A stretch of 56,919 bases of DNA, filler included, from Dimargaris cristalligena (taxonomy: Eukaryota), in NCBI GenBank assembly GCA_003614675.1. It is 4 parts of 4 records of this genome, joined end to end, with 100 filler letters (N's around TTAATTAATTAA, not from the genome) between each part and the next. Parts side by side here need not be neighbours in the genome. Positions count along the whole stretch, not along the records: positions 28,582 to 42,698 come from ML002961.1; 3 more parts are not named here. One strand, written 5' to 3'. The translations under genes were made by a program, and so were the position numbers. This document shows, one piece after another, positions 24,121-52,243 of this stretch. The notes beneath the pieces were generated by a model. That model saw nothing but the letters and a program-made list of their open reading frames with translations, ran no database searches and had not been told where the DNA came from. How positions within the stretch are numbered: position 1 is the stretch's first letter; every line of letters begins with the position of its first letter.

Positions 24121-27000
24121 ATGGCCCCGGACTCGAGTGTTCCGAGTAGTAGTCCCCTTATGACCGAGGGGTCTCCGGACCCCACTTCCCCTGACAACCG
24201 CGCTAAACAAGCCTGCGATTTCTGTCGCAGCCGTAAAATTAAATGCGACCGGGTCCGGCCCATGTGCTCGAGTTGTCGACCCCGTAACCGCAACTGTGTA
24301 TATACCCCCACCCCGGCTAAACAACGCCGGTCGCATAAGGATATGCCCCGGTCGCCCGTCCGACTCTTAGCCATTAAACCATGCCCACCCCCCTGTCTGC
24401 CCGTGGTTGCCCCTAATTTGCCCATGGTACCCACCACCAGTGCCTACGCCCCGCCTTCGCCAGGCTCCACTGAGGCCCAGCTAGCCTCTCCGCCACAACT
24501 CCCCCGGGAGTCTGAGCCATTCTCTTCCCCATTGATTGCTCAGGCCTGCTTATCTTCCCCCCTGCCTATCCAGGAATGGTCCCAGGCGTTTGCCGCCGCC
24601 ACCGACGGCACCGCCCTGTCCCGCCGGGCTAGTCCAACGGTAGCCCCCTTGTCTTCACCGGTCTTGTCCCGGTCCCCTTCGCTAAGTGCCCCCATTGATG
24701 TCGAGACGGAGGTAGCCCTGCGAGACGTCCTCTTGGAACGGATTGATCACCTCGAGACCCTCATGCGGACCATGTCCCCCTGGTACGCTGCGGATATGGC
24801 GTCTAGCGATGATGTTGCCGATAATCTGCGGGACTTCCGGGGAGGGGATTTACTCTCCAGTACCCGCGACATTGAAAAATTCTTCGGCATCCAACCCACG
24901 TCCGATGAAAGGACCCCCCGTGCACCCCTTCCTACTGTTGCTGCTTCCTCGCACCTGAAGGCCGTGGAGAACATGGTCTTAGATCATACGGCGGTTCTAG
25001 AGCATATCCAAGCCGTTTTGAGTCCAAAAGTGGGGGAGCTACTTAGTCCCAGTTCATCAATCCCTAGTTCGAATCCCGCCAGTCTTGACCACGACCCTAC
25101 TACGCTCGCGTCTACCGATATGGATGTAGATGTAGATGAAGTAATGGGCGATCCGTCCAGCGATGACGCGGCCCCCGCCAACCAGCTAGCACCGGCCGAA
25201 AGACGCCCTAACCGACCAACGGGTACCGGTCGTATTCTACCCTGGACTCCGGCCCGTTTCCAACGATACCTGGAACACTCGAACTCCAACGTGAATGACG
25301 ACCCCGTCCTGTATCTCTTCGCCAAACTAGGTCATGCCTTTTGGACCAACGAGCTACGGATCTCCTACGAATCCGTCTTTGGGGCAAAGAAACAGCCCAT
25401 ACCGCGCAGCTTATACGTCCCGGACGACCTTTTGTTCCATTCCAATGTCCTGGACCATCTCCTGTTTCTCTTTTGCCGTATTATTTACCCCGTGGGGCCC
25501 CAACTTCATTTTAACCGCTTTATGTTAAGGCGGGCGAAGGGCATTTCCAGCGATGCCGTCCAGCTCGCTATCCCCATGGTTATGGCGCCCATATCCAACC
25601 ACACGGTTTTTCAAAATGTCCCTCCCCATCTCGCCGGCCGGGTCTACTACCACCACTTACGTCCCATGATCCCCGACCTCATTGAGAGTAGTGACCTGGA
25701 CTCGGGCGTCATTTTCATGGTCCTGGGTGAGTATGAGATGGGCCGGGGAAATACCGAGTCCAGTTTCTCCATGATATCCTTGGCCATACGTAAGTTCCAG
25801 TCCCTGCGCATCCATATTATGGACCATCCCCACCCGGCCCCCAAATTTGATCCCCACGACGGCTATCCCGATATGGCCTCCCTGACCGACCCGTTATTAC
25901 GCGAAAACTACCGCAACCTGTGGTGGGGCATCTTCGGCCAGGATGTGATCAGCTCGCTCCTGTTCGGACAGCTCCCTAGCGTGGATATCAATAATATCTG
26001 TATCAATCTACCGGCCCACCCCATCGTGTTTGGCCAACTCTGCCTGGGCAATCTCAGCGACCCCCGGTCGCCGTTTTACCAGGATTCGGCCTACCCCGCG
26101 TTCCTCACGCGACCCATGAGTCGGTACCATACGGAACGAACCTTTGTCGATTTACGCGTCATCAGTCACCGGGTGGCCCAGCTGCGCTATTATAAGGCCA
26201 GTGATCCACTGATGTGGTTCCGGGAGCGTCCCCATATTAACCAGCAACTGGAGAGCTGGTTCCTGGATTGTCAGGACGAACTCAACCCCCAGTGCCGTAT
26301 GAGCCTTCTTAACGTGTCCCCCAAGATTTACCGCGAGTACCTTATCTTCTGCCTCCATGTACGGATCACTTACTTCATGACCGTCATCTTCCTGAATTAC
26401 ACCGGGGATATGAATCCGTGGCCCTTTACGCCCGCTGCCCCTCCCTCCGCCCCGGGCGAGTCGAAACCACCATCAGCCGGGGACAGCACCAGGGATCACC
26501 ATCCCGCCCCCGCCGACGGATCGTTCGACCCGGCTAGTTTAACGAAGGAAACGGGACAGGCCGACTCCGATAGTAATAGTAGTAGCAATAGCAATAGCAG
26601 TCGTACTCACGAAGATCACCACAACCAGCAGCAGCAACAGCCCCTTACTCAGCTAGACCCGGACGGGTCCATTGAGCGGGATTGTCAAGAACGGTGTTGG
26701 AAGGCGGTTCAGGAACTCCGCCGGGTGATTGAACAGTCCATGTCGGTTCCCAATTTCTTCCAAAATACCCTTTTTTTAGGGGCCTTCTACGCCGCTGCCG
26801 TGGTCTGCATCGAAACCATCCAGCGCTCGGACGACCGGGAACGGATCGAATGGGCGCAGCAATTCGTCGAAGAAATCATCAGTTTCCTATCGCAGTTTGG
26901 TCAGCTTTGGGTCACCAATCTAAAAGCCGTCCAAACGATCAAACAATTGCGCGAATCGTCCGCTGACTCGTCCAAGCCCCTTACCCTGGCCTTTAACTGA
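24121..27000 (+). CDS. Zn(II)2Cys6 fungal transcription factor with fungal-TF middle homology region (intronless, ~959 aa)
   Basis: ACDFCRSRKIKCDRVRPMCSSCRPRNRNCVY; coiled coil LLERIDHLETLM; RENYRNLWWGIFGQD..SLLFG. The first ATG is at 24121 (the ORF-track start is TTG). Confidence 0.92.
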   Translation: MAPDSSVPSSSPLMTEGSPDPTSPDNRAKQACDFCRSRKIKCDRVRPMCSSCRPRNRNCVYTPTPAKQRRSHKDMPRSPVRLLAIKPCPPPCLPVVAPNLPMVPTTSAYAPPSPGSTEAQLASPPQLPRESEPFSSPLIAQACLSSPLPIQEWSQAFAAATDGTALSRRASPTVAPLSSPVLSRSPSLSAPIDVETEVALRDVLLERIDHLETLMRTMSPWYAADMASSDDVADNLRDFRGGDLLSSTRDIEKFFGIQPTSDERTPRAPLPTVAASSHLKAVENMVLDHTAVLEHIQAVLSPKVGELLSPSSSIPSSNPASLDHDPTTLASTDMDVDVDEVMGDPSSDDAAPANQLAPAERRPNRPTGTGRILPWTPARFQRYLEHSNSNVNDDPVLYLFAKLGHAFWTNELRISYESVFGAKKQPIPRSLYVPDDLLFHSNVLDHLLFLFCRIIYPVGPQLHFNRFMLRRAKGISSDAVQLAIPMVMAPISNHTVFQNVPPHLAGRVYYHHLRPMIPDLIESSDLDSGVIFMVLGEYEMGRGNTESSFSMISLAIRKFQSLRIHIMDHPHPAPKFDPHDGYPDMASLTDPLLRENYRNLWWGIFGQDVISSLLFGQLPSVDINNICINLPAHPIVFGQLCLGNLSDPRSPFYQDSAYPAFLTRPMSRYHTERTFVDLRVISHRVAQLRYYKASDPLMWFRERPHINQQLESWFLDCQDELNPQCRMSLLNVSPKIYREYLIFCLHVRITYFMTVIFLNYTGDMNPWPFTPAAPPSAPGESKPPSAGDSTRDHHPAPADGSFDPASLTKETGQADSDSNSSSNSNSSRTHEDHHNQQQQQPLTQLDPDGSIERDCQERCWKAVQELRRVIEQSMSVPNFFQNTLFLGAFYAAAVVCIETIQRSDDRERIEWAQQFVEEIISFLSQFGQLWVTNLKAVQTIKQLRESSADSSKPLTLAFN

Positions 27001-28481: not shown

Positions 28482-28581
28482 NNNNNNNNNNNNNNNNNNN
28501 NNNNNNNNNNNNNNNNNNNNNNNNNTTAATTAATTAANNNNNNNNNNNNNNNNNNNNNNNNNNNNNNNNNNNNNNNNNNNN
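28482..28581. other. Artificial contig linker
   Basis: Same N44-TTAATTAATTAA-N44 spacer. Confidence 0.98.
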
Positions 28582-29701
28582 CGTTACACCGTTCACCCAC
28601 ATTGATGAAATTGGACGATTCGTCGTAGATGAGGGGTTCCAAACCCGATAGCAGCAGTTTCGAGTCCCCGAGCGATGGGGGTGGGATGCGAGGCGCATAG
28701 TTCCGACAGGCATCGGCAATGGCTTTAATGTGAGCGGGCGTGGTACCGCAGCAGCCCCCGATAATATTGACCAGACCGTCCCGGGCGAATTCCGCCACCT
28801 GAACGGCCATCTGGGCCGGGGATTCGTCGTATTCGCCAAAGGTATTGGGCAGACCGGCGTTGGGGTAGCAAATCACGTAATCCGACGTGAAATTAGCGAT
28901 ATTCTGCACGAAGGGGCGCATCTGAGAGGCCCCCAGCGCGCAGTTAAGCCCAATGGCCGCGGGTTTGGTATGGGACAGGGAAATAATGAAGGCCTCGCCC
29001 GTTTGACCCGACAGGGTCCGCCCACTCTGGTCCACGATGGTACCCGAGATAAAGATCGGGACCCGGGGGTAGGTGCCGTTTTCGAACAGAGTTTCAATGG
29101 CGAAGAGCGCGGCCTTGGCATTGAGGGTATCAAAAATGGTCTCGACCAGGATGATATCGGCGCCCCCGTCGAGCAAACCCCGCACCTGTTCGGTGTAGGC
29201 GATGACCAGTTCGTCAAAAGTCACGTTACGGAAGGCCGGGTTTTCCACCGATGGTGAAATGGAACAGGTCCGGTTCGTCGGACCCAGGGCTCCGCACACG
29301 TACCGCGGCCGGTCGGGGGTTTCCGCAGTCACATCCTCACACGCCCGCTTGGCCAGCTGGGCGGCCACTTTGTTGAGCTCGTAGGCCAGGTCCTCCATGG
29401 CGTAGTCGGCCTGGGCGATGGAGGTGGACGAAAAGGTGTTGGTTTCGATCAGATCCGCGCCCGCCCGGAGGTAATTCAGGTGGATCTGGTAAATGGCCTC
29501 GGGCTGGGTCAGGACCAGCAGGTCATTGTTGCCCTTGACGTCCTTGGGGTGGTCTTTGAACCGGTCGGAACGGAACTGGGCTTCGCTGAGGCGCAAATCC
29601 TGGATCTGGGTGCCCATGGCCCCGTCCAGGAAGAGAATGCGCTTCGGGAGAGCTTCGGCCAGGTAGGCGGTCGCAGAAGGGCGAACGGTAGGGGCAGCCA
29701 T
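28582..29701 (-). CDS. metH: Cobalamin-dependent methionine synthase (MetH/MTR): homocysteine-binding domain and start of pterin domain; 3'-truncated by the contig edge
   Basis: [68 protein letters not shown], Zn ligands GLNCALG and [20 protein letters not shown] at 29701. Confidence 0.96.
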
Positions 29702-30037
29702 GGTTCCCAAAATGCGGTGGGTATTTGACGGGGGAATGGAGTAGATATAGTTATTTTTTTGTTCTAAAAAAAGACAAGTGAGAAGCACAAGAGTGCGAAG
29801 GTGTGTTGTCGGGAAATAAAAGAAGTTGGGTATAATGAGCCGGAGTTTATATTCGAGTGGCAAAGGCAAATGGTATAGGAATGGGCTTCGGTGGCCATAT
29901 AAACAAGTCCAGCCTAATGTCACTTCGTATTAATCCCATCGGTGATTTGATGAGCTGATTTATATCACTTCCCAGGATCCCCGTGCTCTTTAGCTGGGAG
30001 ATTATAGGCTCCTGCACTATCCTGCTGATATTAGCGA

Positions 30038-30046
30038 ATGACTCAT
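30038..30046. promoter_or_regulatory. Perfect Gcn4/CpcA (AP-1) consensus ATGACTCAT ~340 bp upstream of MetH
   Basis: Exact 9-mer in the MetH upstream region; function is inferred only. Confidence 0.4.
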
Positions 30047-30805
30047 GATTTACTGCGCCTTTCTAGTTGGAGAATGGGTCGCAGCCCATGCCTTAGTTCT
30101 AGAGCAGGTCAATATTTGTCCACCTGTAGCTAACTGGTAAAAAGATCGACTCTCTGACTTTTGGTATATCGGATATATTCTTAGCTTGGCTATTATCTAA
30201 TTCAATGGTCAACCACCTTAAATATGAAGGATTTCGTCAAATACAGCCAGGTAGATAAGCGTCAAATTGGAGACCATTATCCATGGAGCCTGGATGGGCA
30301 GTGGCTTTCTACAAATATTGCAGCGATTTCTCCTGCATAAATATGCTCGCTTGATTGCTATGACCTACCTCAACCATCTAAAACATAACCAATTACAATT
30401 CAACTTGCACTATTGGGGTATGTTATTATGTGACCTGTATCCAGGCGCGTGGAATGGGGGGGGGGGTTTGAGAGCTATACTGATCAGCCGACTTGTACGG
30501 ATTAGTTATAGACTGGAATGGAACACATAACATTTCATTGGCATTTACTAGCTCGACTAACCACCACTTCTAGGATCTGTCCATTATACTCGGAACTCTT
30601 CAATACTTAATCGCCACAGGTCGTGGTCGCATAGGATTGTGGTCAAATTTAGGTGATTTACTAAAAACCATATTGGTAAAATTTCATACTAAAATAAAAT
30701 GTGTTTGGGCTTTTGGCCACACTAAGCCATCTAAGGCTTAAGTCGCACGGCAAAATGAAGTGCAAAAAAATAATAATATACAAGGTGGCAATGTTGTGTT
30801 ACACA

Positions 30806-33800
30806 TCAGTAAAAAAATTGAACCGACGCACCAATCTGAAGAGCGTGTGGAAATCGCGACCGGCTAGCTACGTGGCGAAGGTGTTGGCCGAAATTTACTT
30901 TTCCCTAAGAGTCAATAATCATGGAAATTTGGTTCACATCCAATCGAGGTTAATTTTTGCGAGTCTCTAGGTCTGGTACGGGCTGGGTTGCTAGTATTTT
31001 AAATGCCCCACATCGCCCGGCTGCCATGCCCCAATCATAACCATATATATAGGAAAACAGCGCAGGATTCTGGCAACACCCATTACGTTTCTGGTCCAGT
31101 ATTACTTACCTGATCGTTCCGATGCACCGATAGCGTCGAAAAGGGTTCTTTGGAGATCTGGCCCGTCTCCTGGTCAATGCAAATCATCTGGCACCGTTTG
31201 CATGGTTTAACAGTCTAGTCCCGGTGGAATTTAGGATAGTTTAAGGTTAGTACTTCGAAGGAGTTCTAGCAGTCCAGTGGGCGAGTCCTTGAAACCGACG
31301 GTGCTATAAGAATCATTATTCGTGATCCAGAGGAGGTATAACGGTAACTTACTTCATAATATTGTCCACCGATCATCACTGCCTTCCAGCCATCTTCTGC
31401 AAATGGTACCAAATCCGATTCGCTCCCAATCACTATATTGGCACGAAACCTGGGAAGATAAGTGCAGGAGGATTCTTCTGGCCTAGACTTCGGCTCGATG
31501 TCTAGGGCCTCATCCGATCGCTGGCGTACCCAGCGGCCCAGCTCGGCGGCACTGTTTTCCGAAACCAACAAGTAGGAAGACTCGTTGGCGAATGACCGAC
31601 CTGGTTGGCGGTGTGGGGTTGAGTATGGGTCGGTACTTCCCACTAAACTATCCGGTATATCTGTCGGCGAGGGATATCCGTTGGTATCCGGTTGAAGGGG
31701 TGATAATTGGCGTACAAGGTAGCAAGGAAATCCCATTACCGAAGAAAACCAGTCATTGATTCGCTCAGAGAGATACCGTATAGAATGGGTCTGGTCCCCA
31801 CACACTCGACAGTCGGCGACCTCAGATGCAGATTTGTGGTCACTTAGGCCAATTCTTAAATCGGGGTGGTCTTGCGTATTGAAGCGTAACGAGTAATATA
31901 TGCATTTAGATAAAATAGGCAGGGTAAATAAACTTAAGGGCGTCCTAGTAGTTAAGTACGACGGGCGATGGTGCTAGGTGTTTCTTCCTTGGGTAGCAGC
32001 TATATTACGGCTAGTACAAGCGAAGTAACCAAGTTAATTCTTATTATCAATCTTAACTTTACCTGGTGCAGAAACCTTCAGGGTTTGGGTGTGAGTGTCA
32101 ACCACTGGCCGGACCAAACACATCCTAGGGTATCTATGGGAAACATGGAAAGCGACGGTACAGCAAGCGGAGAAGGGTATATGATTAAAATATAAAGTCA
32201 TAAGCGTGTCCAGGTGGGCGGACATATTATAAGTATGGGAATGGCACATACATGTCCCAGCAAATAAGGGAAGTGGGTTGATACCCCCGTCCAATTTTAC
32301 TATGGATGGCACGGGGTAATTTAACTGGTTCCACCGTCAGCGAGATGGTGGATTATCATACCTTTTTTGCCCGATTGCTCGGTGAGTTCGCGCATCGATC
32401 ACTGACCAAGCTCGATCATACATCAGCCCATGTTCGGTTACGGGCCAGGATTTATCGGGGTGGATTGACATGCCATGACAGGATTTTATAGGGACTGATT
32501 AGAATCAGCAACCACCAAGGAGAACCCGATTATATATATAAGGTAAGATCCAGAAGCAGGTTAATAGGTTAATCGTGTAATTCCTCATTACGTATAGAGT
32601 TGGTTACAGACACTGTACTTTGTCATCGTTATAATTTTAACCCTTACAAATTGCTAAACCACGGAGCCGAATATCCGCAGTGGCGGGGTTGATTGTCGGC
32701 TTTGCTATCAGATTTTGGGAGCTCTGAGTCAGATCGATGCTCGATTCTAAAAACTGGGTGGCGAGGAATCGAATCCACCGGTCCACATCTTCAAAGCGGC
32801 TGGATGCCCCAAAAGAAATTCGGACCGAGCCCGTGGGCTGATTATCCACCAAGTCATGGTCATCCCAACACACATGTCCACGCTAAATAAATGGTATATA
32901 TACAGGAGTCCACCAAGTAAGAATTGTATCAGTTAGAATGCCATTAATGGGGAGTAACGATTGAGAATATAGTTAACTGTTGGGATACAGGGCTTCTTAA
33001 CCAACCTATTGTTCCTATTCCCTTTCCTTTTAAAATACCAGTTAGGTTACCTCTAAGTTGCTTTTGATTTGACCGGGCGTTAGCTGAAGCCAATGTTCCT
33101 GGGCCCCTGGGTTACACGCCCCACCTGTTCGAATGGCCAGTCGGTATAAAGTAGCCAGTTGGGCCACTTCGGCATAGCCGATCCAGTTCCCGTCGCCACG
33201 GCGCAAGTTGAAGTTTAAGATGGGGCCCTGGTGGGCCAGCCATAGAGTTATTAATCCGGCGGGATCTCCTAGGTTAGGTTGGGTGGCTAGTTGAACCAGG
33301 GCCGGGTCCAGGTACCATGTGCACAGGGGTTGGCCCGTAGGATGCACCAGTTCCTGGGCCATTCGGCGGAGCGAGTAGATGCTTAGGGCGGCTGTGTGGA
33401 AGGCCAACCGGGGCGCGGGACTAAACAGCATCTGCCAGCGATTCATGGCATGCTGTAGGGCAATAATGTCCCCGTAGTTGACGGTACCATCCTCGAACTT
33501 ATCGCTGAGCTGAGACCGGTAGCGCTGCCAGGGTTCACTGGCTATCGCTGCTGTTACAGTTCCTCCACCAAAGTAGCTCTTTTGGAAGTAGGGGGCTAAG
33601 CGATTATGTACGATCAGGGCCCCCAGGCCGGTGGGGAAACCGAATACCTTGTAAAAAGATAGGGCGACCATATCAACGGAATTTTCGTCGCTGTTGAGGT
33701 TAAGTGTGGACGTGGTGAGGTAAGAGGCGGCGTCTAGCAAGACCCACCAGGGACCCTTGGGGAGATATTGTAGGGCCCTCCTACATGGCTTGGTCGAAGC

Positions 33801-34805
33801 CCGTTGCTTGATCTGTGTAGACCAGCTTAGTGGAAAACGTGCCCCACTATAGTTACACTGGGCCGGGTAGGCGAATAGATGAAAGGGGTTGTTGGTTGGA
33901 ATGTCACTGTTATCATCCGGATCAATGGTGGATGTGGCCATCATTTTCTGAGAGAGGGCTGTAGGATTCCCTAAACATGCATCGACTTGATTGGTCGACA
34001 GGCACTTGGTATGGGCGCCAGCCTTTAAAGCCAGCTCTCTAACCCCAAGTAGTGAAGTATGGGCCATATCGTGGTACCAAAAATGACTGCCATCGCTATT
34101 CGATGGGGTTGGGCCCGTAACGACGTCATTTAGGCCCCTAGCAGCCGACTTCTGCCAGGGGAAGCATTCCCCCGCCAACTTAAGGGCCGCCGTCGCATTG
34201 GCCGTGAAAATTACCGAGTAGGTCCGTTCGGTGGTACCCAGCCAGGCCAGCACGGCTGTTCGAACTGCTTGGACCCGGTCGGCGGTGGCTAATGAAACTC
34301 GGCTCTGGGAGTGGGGATTACCGAATAGACTCTGGCACATGGTTTCGCTGAACTCGCGAATGGCCGTCTGGCTGGGGACTGTGGCCCCGGCATGGTCAAG
34401 GTAAACGTCGGGGCCTGTACCAAGAGGAGCAAAGAGGGAGGGGGGTATTGAAGGCAGTTATTCATAGTCCACTACTAGTTAGCAATAGGCACTCTCGCAT
34501 TGCGCCAGGGTAAGGGGGAATAGAAGGATATTGTCGGGGCCAGCCTACGAATACCATTTACTGTACTCGGAATGGGTCAGGCAGTGACAGTCAGGGGCCG
34601 GGACTAGCCCTGGGGGCCTGCCTTTGGGGCTTAGGCCTCTAAACCAAAAAGCAGGCCTAGGTCGTCAACAATGGACCAGCCTGTGCATGACGAACTTGCC
34701 TAGGGTTTGGCTGAATTCTGCTTGGGCAATGGTGTCTATGTCGGGGTTGTAGAACTCGGCCCATTGGTCTAGAAACGCCTCTTTGGCGTCCACGGGGGAG
34801 GTCAT
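30806..34805 (-). CDS. hxB: Molybdenum cofactor sulfurase (HxB/ABA3/MOCOS; NifS-like + MOSC domains); exons 34805-34700, 34414-33051, 32882-32648, 32494-32362, 32133-32063, 31870-31353, 31214-31110, 30904-30806
   Basis: VYLDHAGAT, FTANATAALKL, LLDAAS, PLP lysine in SFYKVFGFPTGLGAL, RTGGACNPG, GHVCWDD..TGSVRISFG, FPIKSC, DRAWSV, FANES, RFRANIV, CKRCQMICIDQETG. Phases are consistent; intron 1 has a GC donor. Confidence 0.92.
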
Positions 34806-35042
34806 CGTTCAAGGGAGGAGTTGGTGTATAAATAGGGGGGATATGAATGGTTGACAGTAATGAGCCGGGTTGCGAATGAGGGAAATGGGCTTGAGTAAGG
34901 AAAGGTATTCAGGACTAGACTAGCTGTGCGATACTGAGAGGGGGAGTCTACTATTTGAGTCGACCCGACCCAACATCGCTGCCGCATGATGATTATTGAG
35001 CAGTCCTCTAATATAATAGTCAGTCAGTGGTCCTTGTGATCA

Positions 35043-35174
35043 ATATGGGTGAAATTCAAACCAGCTGTATAAGGTTTTACATAATACATGTATGTGAGAA
35101 TACCTGTTAACCAGTAATATTGGCCTCATCCAATGGATTTTTCGTTATACAGCCTGAATGAACTTCTCCCATAT
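35043..35174 (+). repeat. MITE-like element, copy C (in the hxB/GlyRS divergent promoter)
   Basis: ATATGGGTGAAATTCAAACCAGCTGTATAA...TTATACAGCCTGAATGAACTTCTCCCATAT; ~30-bp imperfect terminal inverted repeats. Confidence 0.85.
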
Positions 35175-35483
35175 CATAAAAGACTGGTTCCAAGGAGAGG
35201 GGTGACTTTATCAGTAGCATCGTCTCTAATTAAGTCCCCCTCGCTTCTAGCAGGTACAACCACTAAGGGTGCGCGGGTTCTACACTCCTTACTGTCCAAC
35301 CCAACTGCGGAATCCCTTGGCCTTGAATGAGCCCACCCGTTTCCCCTCCCCCAGCGGCCTCTACTCCACCCTTATTATATTATATTTTATTTCTATACAC
35401 ATACCTTTATATAATATTTATTTACCTAAACCGGGGTTATTTGTTGTCCAAGACTAGTTAGTCATTCGGGTTCACTAAGTGCC

Positions 35484-37202
35484 ATGAAGGTTCTCCTCGA
35501 GCTATGTAAGCGCCGGGGCTTCCTCTTCCCCTCAGCTGAGATCCACGGAGGGCTACGGGGTGCTTACGATTACGGTCCACTGGGGGTCGAACTCAAGCGG
35601 AATATCCTTTCAAGCTGGTACCGCGATCTCGTGTACGGCCGGGACGACGTGGTGGGTACCGACACGGGCATTCTTACCCCCGCCCCGGTGTTCCAGGCCT
35701 CCGGCCATTTGAGCAACTTCACCGACGACTTGGTCGATTGTTTGCTCACCCGGGAACGGTTCCGCCCCGATAAAGCGCCGCCCCTACGCTTAGAAGCCCG
35801 AACACCGGCGTCATCGACGGTTCTGCCACTTGTATCACCGGACCGTCCAACCGCGAAGTTATGGGAGGAGGCCATAACGACCCGGCTGGCTCCCGGAGCC
35901 AAGGTAACCCGGCAGGGCAATGCGGTGTTCCTGTACCCTTTAAACCCCGAGGTGGCCGGGTCGGTATCCCCCGCGAGTGATACCGCCGTGGATCTCCTCC
36001 TCGAACCCGCTGAAAGTGGCCAGGCCCCCGTGCCCATCTCTTACCACGGCTATGCCGAACCCCATTCCAACTCCCCCTTTTTAACCGCTCCCCGGGCCTT
36101 TAATTTGATGCTGAAGTCCTTTGTTGACCCCATCGATCCCATCGAAACCGTGATCCAGGAGACCCTCGCTCAGTCCCGCCGGGCATCCACTAGCTCGACC
36201 ACTGATTACCGTCAGGCAGTAGATGCGGCCATTGGTGGCTCTACAGTATTTCTCCGGCCCGAAACGGCCCAGGGGGTCTTTATGAATTACCAACACATTC
36301 AGCGCACCACGGGCCTTCAGCCTCCGTTTGGAATTGCGCAAGTCGGTAAGGCTTTCCGAAACGAATTACGCGTAGAACACGCCATTTTCCGAACCCTCGA
36401 ATTTGAGCAACTCGAGTTGGAGTATTTTGTGCCTCCTACTAATAGTACCGAGTGGTTCAGCTACTGGCGCCAACAGCGTCTGCGATGGTGGCTGGCTTAC
36501 GCCCGCCAGGCCGACCGGTTCCGGCTGCGGGACTACGAGAAGTCCGAGCTCGCCCACTACGCGTCGGGGTGCACCGACGTAGAGTTCCAATTCCCCTGGG
36601 GCTGGGACGAACTGGAAGGTGTGGCCCACCGCGGAGATTTTGATTTACGGCAGCACTTCCCGACCGCCCCCGGTAAAGCCAGCGCCGCGTTCCCCCATTG
36701 CATCGAATCATCGGCGGGTCTGAACAGGGCCCTTCTGGCCTTATTGGTGGATGCCCTGGACGTGGTTCCCCTGGCGGATGGATCCGACCCATCCTCCCCC
36801 GCCACCGCTCCCCGTGGTGGTAATAGCGCGTCGACCAGCGCTAACCGAAATATTCTCCGCCTGCACCCCCACTTGGCCCCGTACAAGGCCGCCATCATGC
36901 CCCTAGTTGCCAAACCCGAATTATTGGGCGCGGCCCAGGAATTGCAGCGCGCCTTCCGTAAGCGACGGATCCCCGTTCGCCTGGAGCCCCAGAGCCTGAA
37001 GATCGGCAAGCGTTACTACCGGCACGACGAAATTGGGACTCCCTGGTGCATTACGGTGGACTATGATACTCTGAGTGATCGTACGGTCACTATTCGGGAC
37101 CGTGATACCACAGAGCAAACCCGGGTCCGACTCGAGGATGTCCCACACATAATTCAGGAAAATTTGGCCCAGTCACCATTTACATTCACTGACATGTCCT
37201 AA
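35484..37202 (+). CDS. Bacterial-type homodimeric (alpha2, GlyQS-like) glycyl-tRNA synthetase with POLG2-like features; intronless, 572 aa
   Basis: LCKRRGFLFPSAEIHGG..YDYGPLGVELKRN, ASGHL..FTD.LVDC, PRAFNLM, LRPETAQG, PFGIAQVGKAFRNE, FRTLEFEQLELEYF, ELAHY, FPWGWDELEGVAHRGDFDL, IESSAGLNR, LRLHPHLAPYKAA, IGKRYYRHDEIGTPWCITVD, RDRDT. Confidence 0.9.
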   Translation: MKVLLELCKRRGFLFPSAEIHGGLRGAYDYGPLGVELKRNILSSWYRDLVYGRDDVVGTDTGILTPAPVFQASGHLSNFTDDLVDCLLTRERFRPDKAPPLRLEARTPASSTVLPLVSPDRPTAKLWEEAITTRLAPGAKVTRQGNAVFLYPLNPEVAGSVSPASDTAVDLLLEPAESGQAPVPISYHGYAEPHSNSPFLTAPRAFNLMLKSFVDPIDPIETVIQETLAQSRRASTSSTTDYRQAVDAAIGGSTVFLRPETAQGVFMNYQHIQRTTGLQPPFGIAQVGKAFRNELRVEHAIFRTLEFEQLELEYFVPPTNSTEWFSYWRQQRLRWWLAYARQADRFRLRDYEKSELAHYASGCTDVEFQFPWGWDELEGVAHRGDFDLRQHFPTAPGKASAAFPHCIESSAGLNRALLALLVDALDVVPLADGSDPSSPATAPRGGNSASTSANRNILRLHPHLAPYKAAIMPLVAKPELLGAAQELQRAFRKRRIPVRLEPQSLKIGKRYYRHDEIGTPWCITVDYDTLSDRTVTIRDRDTTEQTRVRLEDVPHIIQENLAQSPFTFTDMS

Positions 37203-37542
37203 GAATACCTTTGTGGGTTACGAGGCCGTGGCCTTCCTTTAGAATAATTCCGGGGAGGTCAGTCGTCGCCTTTATATAGGAAAACGACAATGGCTTTTCC
37301 CGACCTATAATGTATATAACCCTACACTAGACATACTGGTCAATAAATCGACGGCGACTTGTGGAATCATAGATCGCGTTCCGCTCTCTTAGTCGTATGT
37401 GAGTGAGACACAAAGATAGGATATGCTTTATTTGCTGACGCGCACTATTGACTACTACATTGTGCCAATGGTAGGTTGAATTAGGTGTTCCTTCCGTTGA
37501 TCTGCCTTCTTAATATACATTGGGTGGATTGTTGGTATTGTT

Positions 37543-38703
37543 CTAGACACTACCTTTGGGGATCTGTCCGATTTTATTTAATTTCGTGTCCAAAAACTTG
37601 TATTTGGGCAAGGCCTAGGGGGTACACAACAAGATGGCATGATGAATTGCGAGGGTATGTACAGGTAGTTAGTTAATCCACGAAGCTAAGTAGGTTCGGA
37701 AAGTTTCGCATCGCAGTTGGTAATATATATTAGATGCGGGGCTTTCACAGCCCGTAACATTAGAAACTTACAATAGCCCACACTTTTCCGAAAAGCAGAC
37801 CCATGGGGAGAGGTCCGTATAGTCGGGAGTCGATCGAATAGCCCATATTGTCCCCCTGAATCCAGATATGACCCGGGGGTACCTAAATCAAACAATATAG
37901 AGGAGTTATATGTGCGTATTAATATGCGCAACACATTTAGGGAACTACTGCTATATTACAGCGCGATCGAATCACCGGCATTGGAATGTTATATGATTTG
38001 TGAGCCCAACAATGTTACATAGTCTTCCTACCTCGATCGTGGGGCTGTCCGATTTGCGGGGATCGTGGATTATTCGGTCACCGGGCTAATCATTAAGTAG
38101 ATATGGCAGGGATACCTTATTGATAAGATGAGTTACGGGTATCAAAGGGGCGACAGTTCAAAGGTTCGGTCAAGACTAATGTGAGTATAGACATGTTCCC
38201 TTAAAATCACAAAGGCAAAATGGGTATAACTTACCATGCCCAGTAGTCGCTTACAAATCAAGCGATTAGGATCGCTCGGGCTAACACACAGAACTACATC
38301 GCCGGGTTTCAGCCACCCCATTCGATGGCTGATTCGGTCGTAAGCGAGCCAGTCCCCTTGGACATGCAGGGTGGGTAGCATAGACGGGCCGTCGGACTAA
38401 GCGATAGGGATGAGTATATTAGAATCAATTATATGAAACCAGCCAGTGCGGTGGAGTTAGAGTACAATCTCACCGGCCAATATTGGGGTGCGTGCGTAAG
38501 CTTCAGCAAGGGAACCCTGGGTCGTTCGCCAGGAGTAGAGTGTCAAAAGTCGAGACGGTCCCGTTACTTACCTGGGAGATACTACCGACGTTATCTTTAA
38601 AAACCGAGTAAAGTAGATACCCTTGGGCTGTGGTAAATGTGACTGCCTGGACGAAATGGCCGGACCGATTCCACCAGGCTTTGAGATTTGCGGTAAAGGA
38701 CAT
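37543..38703 (-). CDS. IMP1: Mitochondrial inner membrane protease subunit 1 (S26); exons 38703-38572, 38396-38235, 38085-38032, 37882-37772, 37614-37543
   Basis: Catalytic Ser in GPSMLPTL, Lys in ICKRLLGMPGD, and VPPGHIWIQGDN...SIDSRLYGPLP; GT-AG introns in phase. Confidence 0.88.
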
Positions 38704-39049
38704 GTCGTTCGAATGCGCGCGTCCCTGATGGCAAGGCGGTAGAGGAGCAAGTAAGACCTTATAAGCAAACCTTAACAAAAAAGGTAGTCGGACCAAGTTG
38801 GATTCCGAGCAATGGAGATTTGGAGGATCATAGGGGTAAAGTGCTAGAGAGTGGGGCAGTTTTCAGCCGCATCCCACTTACACCCACATCCCCGGCCTTG
38901 GTGGTTTCTGGTGTAACTCTTTCAGCCTGACCTCTTAGGTCCGACTTCGCATTGCCTTTGAATGATTTCTTCAGCTTGACCACTAAGCGCAATATTATTT
39001 ACCCAACCATTGTCAGGCCTATTGACGATAGCCGCGAACTGTATTGGCC

Positions 39050-40741
39050 ATGTACCCCAGCGAAGTGGAGTTTTTACGACAGTGGCCAAAGGCCCTTGGC
39101 TTTATTCAGCAGGACCAAGTACATGCCTTGCAATCCCTTGCCAGTCAACTCGGAGCTAATTTAAACGGTAAGGGAGAGGGCGGCGACTTGGAAGTATACT
39201 ACTAACACTCCCCTTCAAGGTATTCCAGTTGGGGGGATATCATTTCCCTTGAATGTGGACCACCATTCCTCATACTCAGCAGTATTCAGCGATATCCAAT
39301 AATGTAATTGACTATTCGGCAATGGTATGTAGCCTTCGTCGTACACCAAGATAAGCACGGGGATACCTTGGCCCACTTTGCGGCCCGCCACCACGCTCTC
39401 GGCTGCCTCCACTGGCTAGTGGATGAGGCGGGGGCTGACCCAAATATTATTAACCAGCATGGTAAGTGCCTTTTTCTCAGATATCTCACCCTGAGCTCGT
39501 TATAGTGTAGCCTCACAAACGAACGATATATATCCTTCTCTGCCATGTGTGCTGTCGTGTTTGGTTATTAAGTACTCCTTATGTTCTGGGCTGCTATTCA
39601 CTGGGCCCCCGTTGACTTCGATAGGTCGCTCAATTCTACATGAGGCTGTAGATGATCTACCCTGCCTCGAGTACCTTCTCCAATTCAGTAAGAGGGAGAG
39701 TGGCCAGCGGGTATATATCGACATTAACCATGCCAAGCGAGGCGGCTGGACAGTTCTACACACAGCCGCCTTGAAGGGCAACGCCTCGCTAGTTTCCCTT
39801 TTACTTGATCATGGTGCGGAACCCCGCCTTCGCAATAAAGATGGCTACACACCAGTCCATCTGGCCAGTCAGTATAACCAACTGACTGCCCTTCAACTCA
39901 TGGTGAGGGCCCAACCTAGCTCGGCCCTTTTGGCCACACGAAACGGACGTTTACCAATTCATCTGGCTGCCCGGCAGGGCGGTCGAGAGGTGGTCCTTTG
40001 GTTCCTCGAGGCCGCTAGCGAGAACCGTCATCGGGACCACCCTACTGCAGGCGGGGTCAGTGATTCAGCTGGCGGGTGGTCAGTCCCGGCTATGTTAGAG
40101 GCGGAGGATAGTGCAGGGGCTGATGTGCTCCAAGACGCTGTCGTAAGTGGGTCGGTCCCTTTACTCAGTGCACTTCTCCACCCGGAGACAACATCCCCCT
40201 GGCGAGACTTCCTACTAGCCTCCCATCGGCTCACCCGGCCCGAACACTCTACTGGCAAGACCATTCTCCACCTGGCCTGTATGGCTAACCACTTGCTAGT
40301 CCTGGAATATCTTTACCAACATGATATGGTGGGTGACCCAAATGTGCGCGACACCTGGGATGGCTGGTCCCCACTGATGTACTCGGCCCGGTATGGGGAT
40401 GTTAATATCATTGATTTTTTAATACGCCGGTGCCAGGCTAACAAACAACTTACCGACCGGCATGGGCGAACGGCTCTTGATATTGGTAAGTTATTTGCCA
40501 TATTAATATATATTCGACCTTATTTTGTATTTACATTATGAAGCTCCTGGTCATTTGCACGCGAGAATGGGGTTTAGCAGGTATATTGGTAAAATATGGT
40601 ACCCTAATGGGTTGGTGAGTTATAAAACATTAACCCTTCTATATTTTTTTTTTAAAAAATCCAATATCGCTCTGTGGTCTACTATTAGCGCTCATGTGGA
40701 AGCGACCACCAGCCGTCATGGATCTGCTAGGGCCACCCTGA
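39050..40741 (+). CDS. Ankyrin-repeat protein, ANKRD16-like; exons 39050-39167, 39333-39461, 39625-40485, 40689-40741
   Basis: Consecutive ankyrin repeats GDTLAHFAARH, GRSILHEAV, GWTVLHTAA, RNKDGYTPVHLA, GRLPIHLAA, AEDSAGADVLQDAV, GKTILHLAC, GWSPLMYSA, GRTALDIA. The first exon and intron 1 acceptor are less certain. Confidence 0.8.
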
Positions 40742-41014
40742 TACAAATATTCAAACCACTCGATTTCTATATTACCGTATCAGATAATACATTTCATAGC
40801 ATTTATGGAAAACCAACCAAACTCTATCACTAAAAATACACTACAATTATAATTTCCGTAATTATTGGAGTAATTTGACGGTCGTTTTATTAGCTGGACT
40901 GCTGGTTACGATGAGCGCGACTTGTAAACGAGTTGTCGTAAACGTAAATTACTTGGAGATGTCCTACAAATGAATCATTCCAAACGGCAGTATAAGTTAC
41001 CGTTTCACAAATCA

Positions 41015-42134
41015 CTACATTCCGATGTGTATTTTCCTATGTTCTGTGAGATTATTAGATTGTGCGAATGATGCAGGGTAAATAGTACATGTATAAGGCT
41101 TCTCCCCAGTATGCAATCGCATATGCCTCGTGAGACTACCGGACTGTGAAAATGAGTTTGGGCAGATTGGGCAGATATAAGGCTTCTCCCCGGTGTGAGT
41201 TCGTAAATGTGCTGAGAGATGACTGGATTGTAAAAACGACTTCGGGCAATATATGCAGGTAAAGGTCCTCGTCCCGACATGGGCTCGCAAATGTGCCGAG
41301 GGCTTACTGTGCTGTAAAAATAATTTGGGGCAGTTTTCGCAGTTTAAATGTTTCTCCCTGGTGTGTTGGCATATGTTTCTTGAGATTACGAGCGTTGGAA
41401 AGTGATTTTTTGCAAACGTCACGTATATGGGTCTTCGCTTTTGGCCGTGATCCTAAATCGGACTTGATTCGCTTCTGGTCCGACATTGATCGTCCGGCTT
41501 GATCACTGACGGACAGTTTCCGCCTGTTGGGCAATGCCGTGTTTATTTTAGAATGAATGGGCCTCACAGGTATACGTCGGTTGTGACGACGAGTGTCGGG
41601 ATCTAATTCCACTACCTGCCTTACCTGCCGCTGGAGGGGACTGCCTCCGGATGCCAATGTATTTGTAACGGCGGGATCCCAGTCCATAATGGACGGATCA
41701 CCAAGTACTACCGGCTCTAAAAAAGCACGGTCACTCCCACTGCTAGCGTCAGTTGTACCTAATACGCCACCCTCAGCATAGGGAAAGGATCTCGCCGACA
41801 CGAGTTGGTTGCTGAGGTAGTCAGAGCCAAAGTATTTTTCTGACTGGTGGAGTCCTGTGTCATCGGTATTACTCATGGTCGCTTCGAGCTGTTTAATGAA
41901 TTGACCCAATCCGTCCCTATCTAACAGACTTATACGGTCAAATATCAAGGATAGCAGTGGGTTTGTGGAGCGGGGCACTGCGAATGTCCTAGTGACTGCA
42001 GCACTGATACCCAACTGAGAACTATGGGTATAGGAAAACGGGTCGGCTGGGTCAAGTTCGGGATTGTTTGCTTCAGAACCACAAATCATGGACAGTACTG
42101 CCAGAACAACGCTGGATACTTTGAACACACGCAT
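41015..42134 (-). pseudogene. Signal peptide + basic NLS-like segment + five C2H2 zinc fingers (two degenerate); frameshift at ~41361-41366
   Basis: ORF from ATG 42134 (MRVFKVSSVVLAVLSMICGSEA) runs to a degenerate finger RDVC..HMPTH. The finger array continues in another frame (41015-41422) with TGEKPY linkers. Restoring one AC unit in AACACACC joins the two frames. Confidence 0.75.
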
Positions 42135-42698
42135 TTTTGGACAGCTGTTCAAGAATAATTTAAAGTGAAAGATAAAAGAAAGTGGGTTAAGACAAAGACA
42201 AGAAAAAATGACTGTAATGGTTCAACCATTTACCTCTGAAGATATATTTTGCATACAAAATGGATAGTATAGTGAATAACGTACTTTTGACCATGTTCAA
42301 TTTCAAGTATGTGAGAAGAGGGGACATACCATATCGGTAAATACTGGGGTTAGCAAATATATATATATTGCCTGAATGTGTCTATAGATGATGGCGACGA
42401 TGTTTGCAAACAAAGAGTGCTTCCAAGTCTCATAGGGGTGTCCTATGCACCTTAAAGTGTGCGTATGACTAGTATCTGGGAGTATACCATTGTTACACCA
42501 TGTCGCCCGAGTTAACCACTCTTAGTCCGTCAAGAGTCTCGGGGGTAGGCTTCTAACAGTAGGCGGGGCGTTGGACATGGCCAAGCGGGCTACTAGTGTT
42601 AGGGGGGGTGACAAGACTAACCGAATAAAGCAAGCGTAAGTTGTAGGTGAGGTCCGTGCACTAGATGCACACTTACTGGTCAGTACTAGGGGGTGATT

Positions 42699-44032: not shown

Positions 44033-45754
44033 CTACATCATCATGGTTTCAACACCACCGGCCTCCTGCTGCTCCTTAGCGAACAGCTCGAAGTACTGGT
44101 AAATGATGGTCACGGCCAACAGGATACCGGTACCGGACCCGATGGCGCCCATCATATCAGCGGAGACGGACAGGGCACCAATGACCAGACCACCGACGGT
44201 GGCAGCGGTCGGGATGATGCGCTTGAGTTCCTTGTACATGGAGGTATCACGGTAACCGGCAATAACGGTCTGGTGGGAACGGAGTTCTTTGGCCACGTCA
44301 CGGGGAGACGAACCGGATACTTCGATCCAGGTCCGGGAGAACACGGCGCAGATGGTGAGCATAAAGGCCACGTACAGGACGAAGTGAATCGGGTCTTTAA
44401 GGGCTTCGAAAATGCTGTGGGGTGGGGTCATGAAATAGGCAAGACCGCTGGTGGCGTAGAACTGGCTGGAGCCTTCATGAGGTTCCCAGACACCGAAGAG
44501 GCGGACCAGGAAGTTTTCGGGGAAGCGGGTGTAGAGCATCTGGGAGATGAAGAACACGTTAGAAGTCAGGGCGGACTGCAGCATGATGGGCATGTTGGAG
44601 GTGTAGAACAGCTTGATGGGGTAGACGGCACGGTGACCACGGAAGCGGTTGGACTTGATGGGGATCTCCACACGGAAACCCTGGAGGTAGATAACCACGG
44701 CGAAGATGAGCACGGTAGCCATGAGGTTGGTGATGTTGGGTAGGTTGGAGCGGTAGAAGGCCTCCTTGAGGGCCCGGGCCTTATCCTTGCGCACGAAGAG
44801 AAGGTGGAACAAACTGATGATGGCGCCTTCAAACTCGGGACCACGGCCGGTGTTGATGGTGGTGGGGCTCAATGCTTGCCAGATGATAGTCTCACAGATG
44901 TTGGTGGCAATGAACAGGTTGATACCGGAACCCAGACCATAACCCTTTTGCAGGAGTTCGTCGAGGAGGATCACAATCATACCGGCCACGAAGAGCTGGA
45001 TAATCAACAACAGACAGATACCAGCACCGAGCTGCTTGGGATCACCGTAAAGACCGGTCATCACGGACACGGTACCTTGGCCGAATGTGATGAGCATGGC
45101 GAACAATTTTTGGGCGCCGCTGAACAGGGCACGGTCCTCGCGGACACTGTAATCGACATCAATTATATTGGCGCCCGCCAGGAGCTGCATAATCATTCCG
45201 GACGTGATAATGGGGGTGATACCCAGTTCCATCAGTGTACCACGGTTGGAAGCCAGAATCACACGCATCCAGTAAAGCGGGTCAGACGAGTCAGTGGACA
45301 CAATACCGTACAGAGGCACCTGCGAGCACACTAAGAAAATGAACAGAGTGATGGCGGTCCAGAGCATCTGTTGGCGGAAAGGCACTTTACGGTCAGGCGA
45401 GGCGATCTCGGGGATCACGGCCATAAAAGGCCGGATCAGATGAAGGAAACGGACTGGGGAGGGGGTCAATGCGTGATGTTAGAATAAAGGGCAATGGATG
45501 AGTTTCAAGCGGTTGGGGTCAAGCGGGGAGTTACGGGTCGTTGTCCACAGAGGGACATATCGGTGGTCCAAACCCAGATGATGGGCCCTTCGGGGCGCCC
45601 TCGCCGCCTGGGTTTGGCCAGCGCGTGGACACCGGCCCCGCGACACGACCGAAGCCCAGATGATGGGTTCAGGTCGCGTTCGGAGACCATTAGCCCCGGA
45701 CGTGATATCGCTGGATGACAAGGGCGGAGTAGCAGAGGTATACTTACATCCCAT
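44033..45754 (-). CDS. SEC61: Sec61 translocon alpha subunit; exons 45754-45748 (ATGGGAT) and 45453-44033
   Basis: Spliced start [69 protein letters not shown]. Confidence 0.96.
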
Positions 45755-48156: not shown

Positions 48157-49637
48157 GGTAAAGGTATAAAGGGACGGGGGAGTGAAAGTGAAAATCAGTA
48201 GGAATGGGGAGCAAAGTAAGATCGACGAAACTAAGAAGAACCAGACGCTGGATTCAAGCAACGGGGTAGGAAGTACGATTAGAATAGAAGCTTCTACTAT
48301 GCTGTGCTGTGGAATCTCTCTTTCAGCTTGTGCTCTTCGTTGGTGGTGAAATCAAGACTTCTTTAGGCCTCGTTGGTGGTTGGAGAGATAACTCTAGTTG
48401 GGTTATCTAGGCCATCCTTCCAATTCTACTGAGCCCAACTCCCTAAGGAAGCACAGCAGGACCTCTCCATACTTACTACACACACCCCATTTGCACTACG
48501 TGTATGCCCTTGAGTATAGGGGAGAATAATATGCCTAGCAAGTCCTTTTGTGGGTTGGGGCGGTGGTACTTTATTTGGTTGAGTCAAACACCCATCCATT
48601 CACCAGCCACCTTAACTGATTGGCCCAAACTACCCACCGGCACATGGTAGCGAATTGGGTACTAATCACATCTATATAGGCCATTGATTTACTCCAGCCG
48701 GCGGCTCTTTATGCGCCTTAAGGATGAGTGGGGTTGGTCCTTGGGGACCAAACCGGGGCAATGTCCCGTCTAAAACGGTTAGGCAGGGCCCTTTGCATTA
48801 GCCACGGTCCATCAGCACTATTGAAGCGAAATCCCAGCATTTCTAAGAGGAAGTGGCCCATGAAAAACTATAGTTAACACCCCTTCCTGTTTCGGGTCAA
48901 CCTAGTCAGTAAATGAAATACACCTGGCAAGACCAATTGAAAAGGATACATAACCCCCTGTTAATTAGTCCTAACTGACAATATAAGCACTGGTTTATTC
49001 ATTTATATCCGCGCATCCGTATGAGCCATTCATTGCCTTCAGACACGGTCAGATATATGTTGTATTATAAGGTAGTAGTCGACCCTTTATTCGAACCGAC
49101 CAGCCGTTCCGAGGAGCCCCGTTTCTCAAAGCGCCTACTGCACTAGCCTCATCCACTTACCTCTTTGTTTACTATTTACTGATGAGAGAAACGGCTTTTA
49201 ATAGTTGTTGGAGTGGCTTAGGATCAGCCTAGGACTCCTCTCAACAGCCCTTTACTGCAAACTTCAAACCAGAGTGATATCGATTGCATGGGCGATATCC
49301 CCATCTCTTGTGGTCCACTATTCCACTAAAATACCCAATTGTAGACTGATGAGCAGTGTGACTGAGATTAAACTCCGACCCATGGGTGATTGAAACGTGC
49401 CTACCCTGGTTTGGTTCTCACTGGTTTGGCCCATCGTTTATTTACTTTTTTCTTGCCCTCGCCCAAACTGTTCAGCCTATGGGAATTGCCCGCACCTGCC
49501 CTCCACCGCCTTCCAGGGTTTCATGTAACCTTATTCCCCTACCCTTCCTTACGACTATCCAGCCATTGTTCGTCATACATACATATATACTCACCATCTC
49601 ATTATACCGTTTTTATTATCGAGTACAAAGTCCGACC

Positions 49638-51574: not shown

Positions 51575-52243
51575 TGGTGACTTATTTCTTCTACTTTTAA
51601 GGCGGGTGTTGAAATGTGCGGACCTGAATCGAAAACGCATAATTGCCAATTGCTTAGTGAGTTATATAATAGTGAAACAAAATATTCGTCGAACTAAGGA
51701 GTTGAAAGTCAAGTAGATGGCTGGTTGGTGGCGATACCGAGCCCTTTCTCATTGAACTGGGTCTATTAATTAGAGTCGATCGGGGCTAATAGGCTCATGT
51801 CGAAGATTTGCCACTTGCTTCATAGCCTGTGTTGCTATTTGCTCCATGCGCAGTTCTTTATTGCTGGACCCAATGGGCTAGCGTATGGAGAAGGCTCTAA
51901 GCCCCCGTTGACGATTGAAACGCAATTGGCTAGCGCTTAAACTAAACATCGCTGTTGAGGGTGTGTTTGTTCACTGGACTTGGCGGTATAGACGGTATTA
52001 TTTTACTACCGCGGGCCCTAGGTCAGCGTCATTGATAAGCACCCCTCATATGCATATTGCTGGGGCGATTTCTATAGGCCTATGTCATTCTATAACCTTG
52101 CCACGTCTCTGACTTATCCACCACCTGTTGTTCCAATAACCTAGGCATTGGTGGAACCTCATCCTCTTTTCCGTCTCCCTCATTTTCCTCGTTCTTTTGC
52201 CAATACCATCTTCTATCCCTCCCCCCCTATTCAGTTCCCGCAA

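Follow-up and report, generated by a model that had tools for sequence, protein, structure and literature searches.

A helix-loop-helix insert before motif 2 of a bacterial-type glycyl-tRNA synthetase in Dimargaris cristalligena and its possible kinship with the POLG2 dimerisation hairpin

The synthetase gene and its insert

The window considered here is the whole stretch of 56,919 nucleotides, filler included, joined from four records of the Dimargaris cristalligena genome (GCA_003614675.1). Within the part derived from ML002961.1 (positions 28,582 to 42,698) lies an open reading frame (ORF) for a glycyl-tRNA synthetase (GlyRS), referred to as P0001, which carries a helix-loop-helix insert immediately before class II motif 2. 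The original prediction, made from the DNA alone, proposed that this insert corresponds to the dimerisation element of POLG2, which serves mitochondrial DNA polymerase gamma as accessory subunit. The features of the gene are listed below with window positions and P0001 residue numbers. They draw on an AlphaFold2 model of P0001 and on three alignments: A1 (49 relatives), A2 (a hairpin-only profile of 30 sequences) and A4 (11 sequences including holozoans).

35484..37202, plus strand: intronless ORF of 572 amino acids (P0001), an alpha2-type GlyRS of the hairpin-bearing subfamily by family profiles and PDB matches
35775..36083, plus strand: enlarged insertion domain, residues about 98-200, which follows motif 1 and precedes the FNLM hairpin (A1, model)
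36093..36122, plus strand: beta-hairpin 204-213 bearing FNLMLKS, the upstream anchor of the insert, with strands 204-207 and 210-213 (model)
36141..36182, plus strand: insert helix 1, residues 220-233 (model), preceded by the nearly invariant D218-P219
36183..36197, plus strand: Ser/Thr-rich loop, residues 234-238 (model), of varying length among relatives, its A2 columns being mostly gaps
36198..36233, plus strand: insert helix 2, residues 239-250, in which R243 is a conserved Arg and positions i, i+4 and i+8 are hydrophobic (A2, model)
36249..36275, plus strand: FLRPETAQG (256-264), first strand of class II motif 2, with L257-Q263 invariant (A1, A4)
36354..36365, plus strand: FRNE (291-294), motif 2 catalytic residues kept, with F291, R292, N293 and E294 invariant in A1
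36885..37163, plus strand: HGTP-type anticodon-binding domain, residues 468-560 (Pfam PF03129, E 5e-21)

Against NCBIfam, P0001 scores 446.7 bits with PRK04173 (cut-off 312) and 384.1 bits with TIGR00389 (cut-off 243.3). Its top sequence match in the PDB is the Mycobacterium GlyRS 8t5n (E 7e-100, 338.3 bits); Thermus GlyRS is matched at E 1.5e-86, and human and mouse POLG2 far more weakly at E ~1e-27. The motif 3 region IESSAGLNR is kept, with E408, G412 and R415 invariant across the 49 relatives of A1. In A4 the same three residues are invariant together with L257-Q263 and R292-E294, while F291 is nearly so. Judged by these motifs, P0001 is a catalytically intact alpha2 (class IIa) synthetase of the GlyQS type, and tRNA-Gly is the predicted substrate that it would charge.

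With the bacterial alpha2 enzymes of Mycobacterium (8t5n/8sld/8u2q) and Thermus thermophilus (1ati/1b76), P0001 shares its family, its fold, motifs 2 and 3 and the HGTP domain. In Foldseek its model superposes on them with template-modelling (TM) scores by target of 0.81-0.90, those for Mycobacterium GlyRS being 0.85-0.90. The bacterial enzymes differ in having about 13 residues where P0001 has 44, a point at which the HMMER alignment splits, and in being without the enlarged insertion domain 98-200.

The segment first picked out, window positions 36138-36239 on the plus strand, spans codons 219-252, and its peptide reads PIETVIQETLAQSRRASTSSTTDYRQAVDAAIGG, as originally quoted. A gap of about 45 residues had been estimated there, and 44 are counted between FNLMLKS (206-212) and LRPETAQG (257-264). 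In the AlphaFold2 model, built on a 49-sequence alignment (mean predicted local distance difference test, pLDDT, 89.8; predicted TM score, pTM, 0.84), helices at 220-233 and 239-250 bear out the reading of the insert as a helix-loop-helix, as does column-mean hydrophobicity, which follows an i, i+3/4, i+7 periodicity in both helices (i, i+3, i+4 and i+7 in helix 1). The two strands of the beta-hairpin lie upstream and strand 254-257 of motif 2 downstream. Disorder, which had been named as grounds for doubt, is not what the model gives: the insert is confidently folded, with block pLDDT of 86-94 across 211-250 (87, then 94 for 221-230, 86 for 231-240 and 92 for 241-250). In A1 the residues R204 and F206 never vary, and N207 and L208 hardly do; D218 is invariant in A4. 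The module comprising residues 196-262 superposes on the model of a Myxococcota GlyRS cluster with a TM score of 0.79 over 65 residues. Since it is conserved across relatives, the insert is not a product of chance; it is real, folded and conserved in P0001 and its kin. The helical hairpin would project from the catalytic core beside the motif-2 arginine. Searched alone against PDB sequences, the 59-residue hairpin region of P0001 found no match at E<=10. Modelled alone, a 69-residue module (AlphaFold2, 5-sequence alignment) reached pLDDT 62 and pTM 0.29, and its strands became helices, so that model is unusable.

The enlarged insertion domain is specific to this subfamily and co-occurs with the hairpin. 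In A1 it can be aligned only with hairpin-type relatives, and in phmmer it is almost unaligned to Mycobacterium GlyRS. The AlphaFold2 model gives it a helix at 121-135 and several strands, with pLDDT 86-98. According to the Atlas output for P0001 residues 196-262, Pfam 38.1 includes a family for GlyRS insertion domain 1 (PF28494, GlyRS_ins_1), which was not reported in the Pfam scan of P0001 at E<=0.1. In several bacterial hairpin-type GlyRS two CxxC-like cysteine pairs flank the domain (A1 columns at about P0001 86-90 and 190-197), a pattern that suggests a zinc site; the pairs are lost in all fungal and some bacterial members.

Distribution and inheritance of the insert

The hairpin-bearing subfamily is defined here by 37-56 residues from FNLMxKx to LRPETAQG, a D-P start and two amphipathic helices, and P0001 falls within it. 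The spacer is 37-56 residues long in 115 of 121 homologues of P0001 (query included). Of the other six, three are zoopagalean-type sequences with 29-31 low-complexity residues, two have 11-15 residues and one is without the anchors. The two with 11-15 are mucoralean gene models without the hairpin, from Rhizopus microsporus ATCC 52813 (P0081, spacer 11) and Mucor lusitanicus (P0084, spacer 15). Other Rhizopus and Mucorales gene models retain it, and in these two the hairpin region has probably been called as an intron by the gene predictor.

For comparison, 13-16 residues are found at this site in 75 of the 79 doubly anchored loci among the best 80 bacterial loci from GTDB, with 39-42 in the remaining four; the eightieth lacks an anchor. 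Ordinary bacterial GlyRS have 13, and the 10-15 residues first given for bacteria were therefore a sound baseline. Among 144 new representatives at 50% identity, 104 carry both anchors (40 do not), with spacers of 8-15 residues in 79, 19-21 in 7 and 26-88 in 18. A search with the Amoebidium protein as query returned 114 new matches, every one with at least 39 residues and 111 of them with 39-42.

Mapped in this way across homologues, as had been suggested, the insert proves common to a large bacterial GlyRS subfamily and one eukaryotic clade. The nearest bacterial carriers belong to Planctomycetota, Candidatus Uabimicrobium and Marinimicrobia, together with metagenome-assembled genomes of Acidobacteriota, Myxococcota/Deltaproteobacteria and Bdellovibrionota. 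Fungal carriers comprise Dimargaris, Mucoromycota, Mortierellomycota, Zoopagomycota and Blastocladiomycota. Cluster look-ups add Fonticula alba, Amoebidium parasiticum, Creolimax fragrantissima, Capsaspora owczarzaki and Catenaria, and a second look-up Pigoraptor chileana and Chromosphaera perkinsii. All aligned eukaryotic carriers keep both hairpin and catalytic motifs. No animal or choanoflagellate carrier is named among the best 120 matches of the Amoebidium search, which are bacterial or unnamed, and absence from those lineages is not implied. The Chromosphaera protein (P0140, 1473 amino acids) has its hairpin-type GlyRS only at residues 854-1472, either through fusion or because its gene model is a merged one.

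This breadth bears on the suggestion that the insertion is a synapomorphy. That it is real, folded and conserved holds, but it is not special to P0001; bacterial GlyRS carry it in their hundreds, and a synapomorphy of this kind could link POLG2 only to the subfamily as a whole.

Two trees, both quick searches supported by the Shimodaira-Hasegawa approximate likelihood-ratio test (SH-aLRT) only, address how the P0001 gene was inherited. In the first (61 rows, insert columns retained), all 40 insert-bearing rows fall on one side of a branch with support of 100. For the second, 47 rows were picked by hand from about 400 stored proteins and 80 loci, the hairpin columns were dropped and the LG+C20 model was used. 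Support is 96 for the hairpin side, 97 for a bacterial hairpin clade and 94 for a eukaryote clade of 22 rows. Within the latter, ichthyosporeans branch first, followed by Capsaspora together with Pigoraptor and, after these, by Fungi joined to the Fonticula group (92). P0001 sits inside the Fungi (98) even with the hairpin columns omitted. In an LG+G4 run the eukaryote backbone does not resolve. The branching of the eukaryotic hairpin-type GlyRS in the second tree roughly tracks the opisthokont species tree, and so the P0001 gene appears old and vertically inherited within opisthokonts rather than recently transferred. Taken on their own, the placement of the module, its conservation in bacteria and eukaryotes and its vertical inheritance in opisthokonts are close to certain.

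Relation to the POLG2 hairpin

POLG2, or Pol gamma-B (1g5h, 2g4c, 5c51), shares the class IIa synthetase fold with P0001, and it too has a helical hairpin of similar length directly before the motif-2 arginine, accompanied by three short strands. The topological correspondence that had been claimed is supported: HMMER pairs L257 of P0001 with residue 181 of the human chain, and R258 aligns with R182, at the base of the POLG2 four-helix bundle (485-residue chain). In the available text of PMC4419789, the HLH-3beta domain of human POLG2 spans H133-R182 (50 residues, three short strands among them), and R147-G179 is the span of deletion dI4, which breaks the dimer. The lengths are comparable, with 48-53 residues from FNLM to LR in the synthetases (P0001 F206-R258 = 53) against 50 in HLH-3beta, and three strands likewise flank the hairpin in the P0001 model. 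P0001 differs from POLG2 in keeping its synthetase motifs; it has no presequence, and no significant sequence similarity was found between the two hairpins. POLG2 is reported from Metazoa only, as far as the available parts of PMC4419789 and a 2025 preprint go.

Only queries that bear a hairpin themselves yield alignments that extend into the POLG2 hairpin. These alignments start from human residue 171 with a Planctomycetota GlyRS (L007), from 155 with Amoebidium and from 153 with profile A1, and the last two run 26-28 residues into the hairpin in HMMER; with two insert-less GlyRS queries the POLG2 alignment begins at 181. Chain 3ikl_A, which from its coordinates we take to be the dI4 variant, is 32 residues shorter up to the LR motif and has the same spacing beyond it, and queries join it only from that motif onward. 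Of the POLG2 scores of six single queries, the highest belong to the holozoan hairpin-type GlyRS of Amoebidium, which reaches 150.8 bits with mouse, 145.1 with human and 143.1 with 3ikl_A. In the Atlas, which offers leads only, the nearest named clusters to the Amoebidium protein once GlyRS families are skipped are chordate POLG2 (score 0.85), and those nearest to the hairpin part of P0001 are GlyRS fragments. Whole-model Foldseek comparison with POLG2 gives TM scores by target of 0.76-0.81 (E ~1e-27), a global measure that is silent on whether the hairpins superpose. PDB 5c53 chain B ('Pol gamma B', 903 residues) returned about twice the POLG2 score over twice the matched stretches; its record appears to contain POLG2 twice.

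From this correspondence a history can be proposed. By analogy with vertebrate POLG2, the hairpin of P0001 would most likely meet its counterpart in the other subunit and so add a contact to the dimer, although such a role in P0001 itself is put forward only tentatively. The POLG2 hairpin would most likely be this module, retained as a resident opisthokont GlyRS of this type turned into the polymerase gamma accessory subunit. We hold this identity with moderate confidence, near the midpoint between belief and disbelief, because a bacterial-type carrier GlyRS was resident in the lineage that led to animals and because site, length and flanking strands agree. The fuller proposal falls slightly short of that midpoint: POLG2 would derive from a redeployed, vertically inherited, hairpin-type opisthokont GlyRS and not from a Thermus-Deinococcus-like transfer, GARS1 would not be its nearest relative, and the helix-loop-helix of the synthetase would have become the POLG2 four-helix-bundle dimerisation element. 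If so, enzymes of the ancestral type still work as synthetases in early-diverging fungi, Fonticula, ichthyosporeans and filastereans, and P0001 would show in a living organism what the protein was like before it came to bind DNA polymerase. Taken whole, the statement that the segment is the inherited, subfamily-defining helix-loop-helix of an intact alpha2 GlyRS and homologous with the POLG2 hairpin is evenly poised.

The question matters since the origin of the accessory subunit of the animal mitochondrial polymerase has been open ever since it was recognised as a GlyRS relative. Wolf and Koonin are said, in work that cites them, to have proposed in 2001 a bacterial transfer into animals for POLG2. 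A hairpin-bearing, bacterial-type GlyRS that is vertically inherited, and present in the closest unicellular relatives of animals, is a concrete candidate for the POLG2 ancestor, one that makes this origin testable by trees and structural comparisons. Full-text searches, outside which subscription journals mostly lie, returned no paper that describes the hairpin GlyRS subfamily, reports where among opisthokonts it occurs or connects it with POLG2.

Several observations weigh against the proposed history, and most of them favor an alternative that we consider somewhat improbable yet serious, namely that the GlyRS hairpin and the vertebrate HLH-3beta are independent inserts in one permissive loop, the POLG2 hairpin being new in vertebrates. 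Under such convergence POLG2 may or may not still descend from this GlyRS type. Within the hairpin, sequence kinship is negligible. Measured as the score to wild-type human POLG2 minus that to 3ikl_A, the hairpin contributes 0.2-4.6 bits (P0001 0.2, Capsaspora 1.1, Amoebidium 2.0, L007 2.7, profile A1 4.6), and the hairpin-only profile A2 does not match POLG2 in the PDB at E<=10. Nor do the POLG2 scores cleanly separate GlyRS types, since Capsaspora (112.0/106.4) and P0001 (100.1/95.1) score about as well as an insert-less Planctomycetota GlyRS (L061, 106.8/106.2); a Bacillota GlyRS reaches 58.8 bits. Overall P0001 is not POLG2-like, with 100.1 bits to human POLG2 against 338.3 to GlyRS and its catalytic motifs intact; the synthetase active site of POLG2 is reportedly degenerate (Fan 1999, Carrodeguas 1999). 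The loop before motif 2 is moreover an insertion hot spot that accepts unrelated inserts in other GlyRS. Eight representatives (P0149, P0170, P0173, P0174, P0179, P0188, P0197 and P0203, at least one from a eukaryotic transcriptome set) have low-complexity inserts of 26-88 residues there, poly-Ser, poly-Gln or Gly/Ala-rich. P0187 bears an insert and yet groups with insert-less GlyRS in both the LG+G4 and LG+C20 trees. Of the solved GlyRS structures, only that of Nanoarchaeum equitans (5z5e; Fujisawa et al. 2019) has an insert of comparable length here, which would be a further example of what the loop will accept. Over its full length profile A2 aligns with chain residues 156-211 of the Nanoarchaeum enzyme (E 1e-4), and it matches other GlyRS by their flanks only. 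The Nanoarchaeum enzyme is more distant from P0001 than the Mycobacterium enzyme is (220.7 against 338.3 bits; TM by target 0.75). The trees cover GlyRS rows only, and neither P0001 nor its fungal relatives have an N-terminal presequence (A1, upstream ORF check). In published work, too, the hairpin is read as a vertebrate novelty: Oliveira et al. (2015; PMC4419789), in the sections available, place HLH-3beta in all vertebrates, inserted early there and found nowhere else, report it absent from Drosophila and Ciona, and on the basis of homology models reject homology for the residues that align there in Trichoplax and sea urchin. The 2025 preprint dates the origin of Polg2 to Metazoa, states that Fungi and Choanoflagellata lack it and names GARS1 as its closest relative beyond that group. 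Set against convergence are the close agreement in site, length (50 against 48-53) and secondary structure, including the three flanking strands, and the presence of hairpin-type GlyRS in the closest unicellular relatives of animals. The Trichoplax and sea urchin residues that PMC4419789 aligns at the site, in the text available, would also fit retention with divergence, and loss in fast-evolving arthropods and tunicates.

A separate doubt concerns function, as the dimer role of the P0001 hairpin is one that we infer by analogy. The hairpin may instead contact tRNA or brace a domain, packing on residues 98-200 or touching the acceptor arm of tRNA-Gly, in which case its likeness to the POLG2 bundle would be superficial in role. 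Class II synthetases already dimerise through motif 1, the hairpin co-occurs with the subfamily-specific enlarged insertion domain (A1, A4), and its high confidence in a monomer prediction suggests that it is supported by the protein's own body. On the other side, the broad conserved hydrophobic faces of both helices are also compatible with pairing between subunits, and we regard a tRNA-contact or bracing role as rather unlikely but a serious contender. An artefact, whether bacterial contamination, a very recent transfer or an in-frame intron read through, scarcely merits belief. It might be suspected of a bacterial-type protein whose nearest prokaryotic relatives reach 42% identity, lying in eukaryotic DNA where introns are expected. 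The window, however, is fungal nuclear DNA, with a Zn2Cys6 factor, a dynein heavy-chain tail, IMP dehydrogenase (IMPDH), Sec61, DASH Duo1 and CDC48-like ATPases around the gene. The closest relatives of P0001 are fungal, the nearest being a Dimargaris xerosporica protein at 62% identity, and the eukaryotic clade tracks the species tree. The insert is also kept in the proteins of bacteria, where spliceosomal introns do not occur. Contamination, recent transfer and an in-frame intron are rejected on the strength of this fungal context, the fungal relatives, the tree and the bacterial conservation of the insert.

Neighbouring genes and further observations

Elsewhere in the window long ORFs are sparse, as expected of intron-containing eukaryotic DNA. 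Other ORFs or exons were recorded at the following positions:

14434-15783
16448-18037
24016-27000
28526-29923
33042-34340
39549-40541
44033-45469
49386-50405
52148-54837

Their matches are the C-terminus of a dynein heavy chain, IMP dehydrogenase, a fungal Zn2Cys6 transcription factor, a homocysteine S-methyltransferase, a class V aminotransferase, an ankyrin-repeat protein, Sec61 alpha, the DASH subunit Duo1 and a two-AAA CDC48-like ATPase. Neither tRNA genes nor a gene for a Pol gamma partner were found in the window.

The ORF of P0001 begins two residues into the GlyRS profile, and an in-frame stop lies 19 codons upstream of its ATG with no intervening start codon (window 35427-35486). In Creolimax and Capsaspora the orthologues are longer by 60-90 residues at the N-terminus, in a presequence-like extension (A4). 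That early-diverging fungi should retain a second, bacterial-type GlyRS without a presequence is unexplained even when the link to POLG2 is set aside.

Compared with its other fungal relatives, P0001 has about 20-25 residues fewer in the loop after H391, and the low-complexity stretch DGSDPSSPATAPRGGNSASTSA is particular to it. Its two poorly modelled regions are residues about 392-403 (window 36657-36692) and 430-452 (36771-36839). Block pLDDT in the AlphaFold2 model is 66 for 391-400, 62 for 431-440 and 47 for 441-450, falling below 50 at 443-448. These two regions are the ones that the original prediction had compared with the DNA-binding loops of POLG2.

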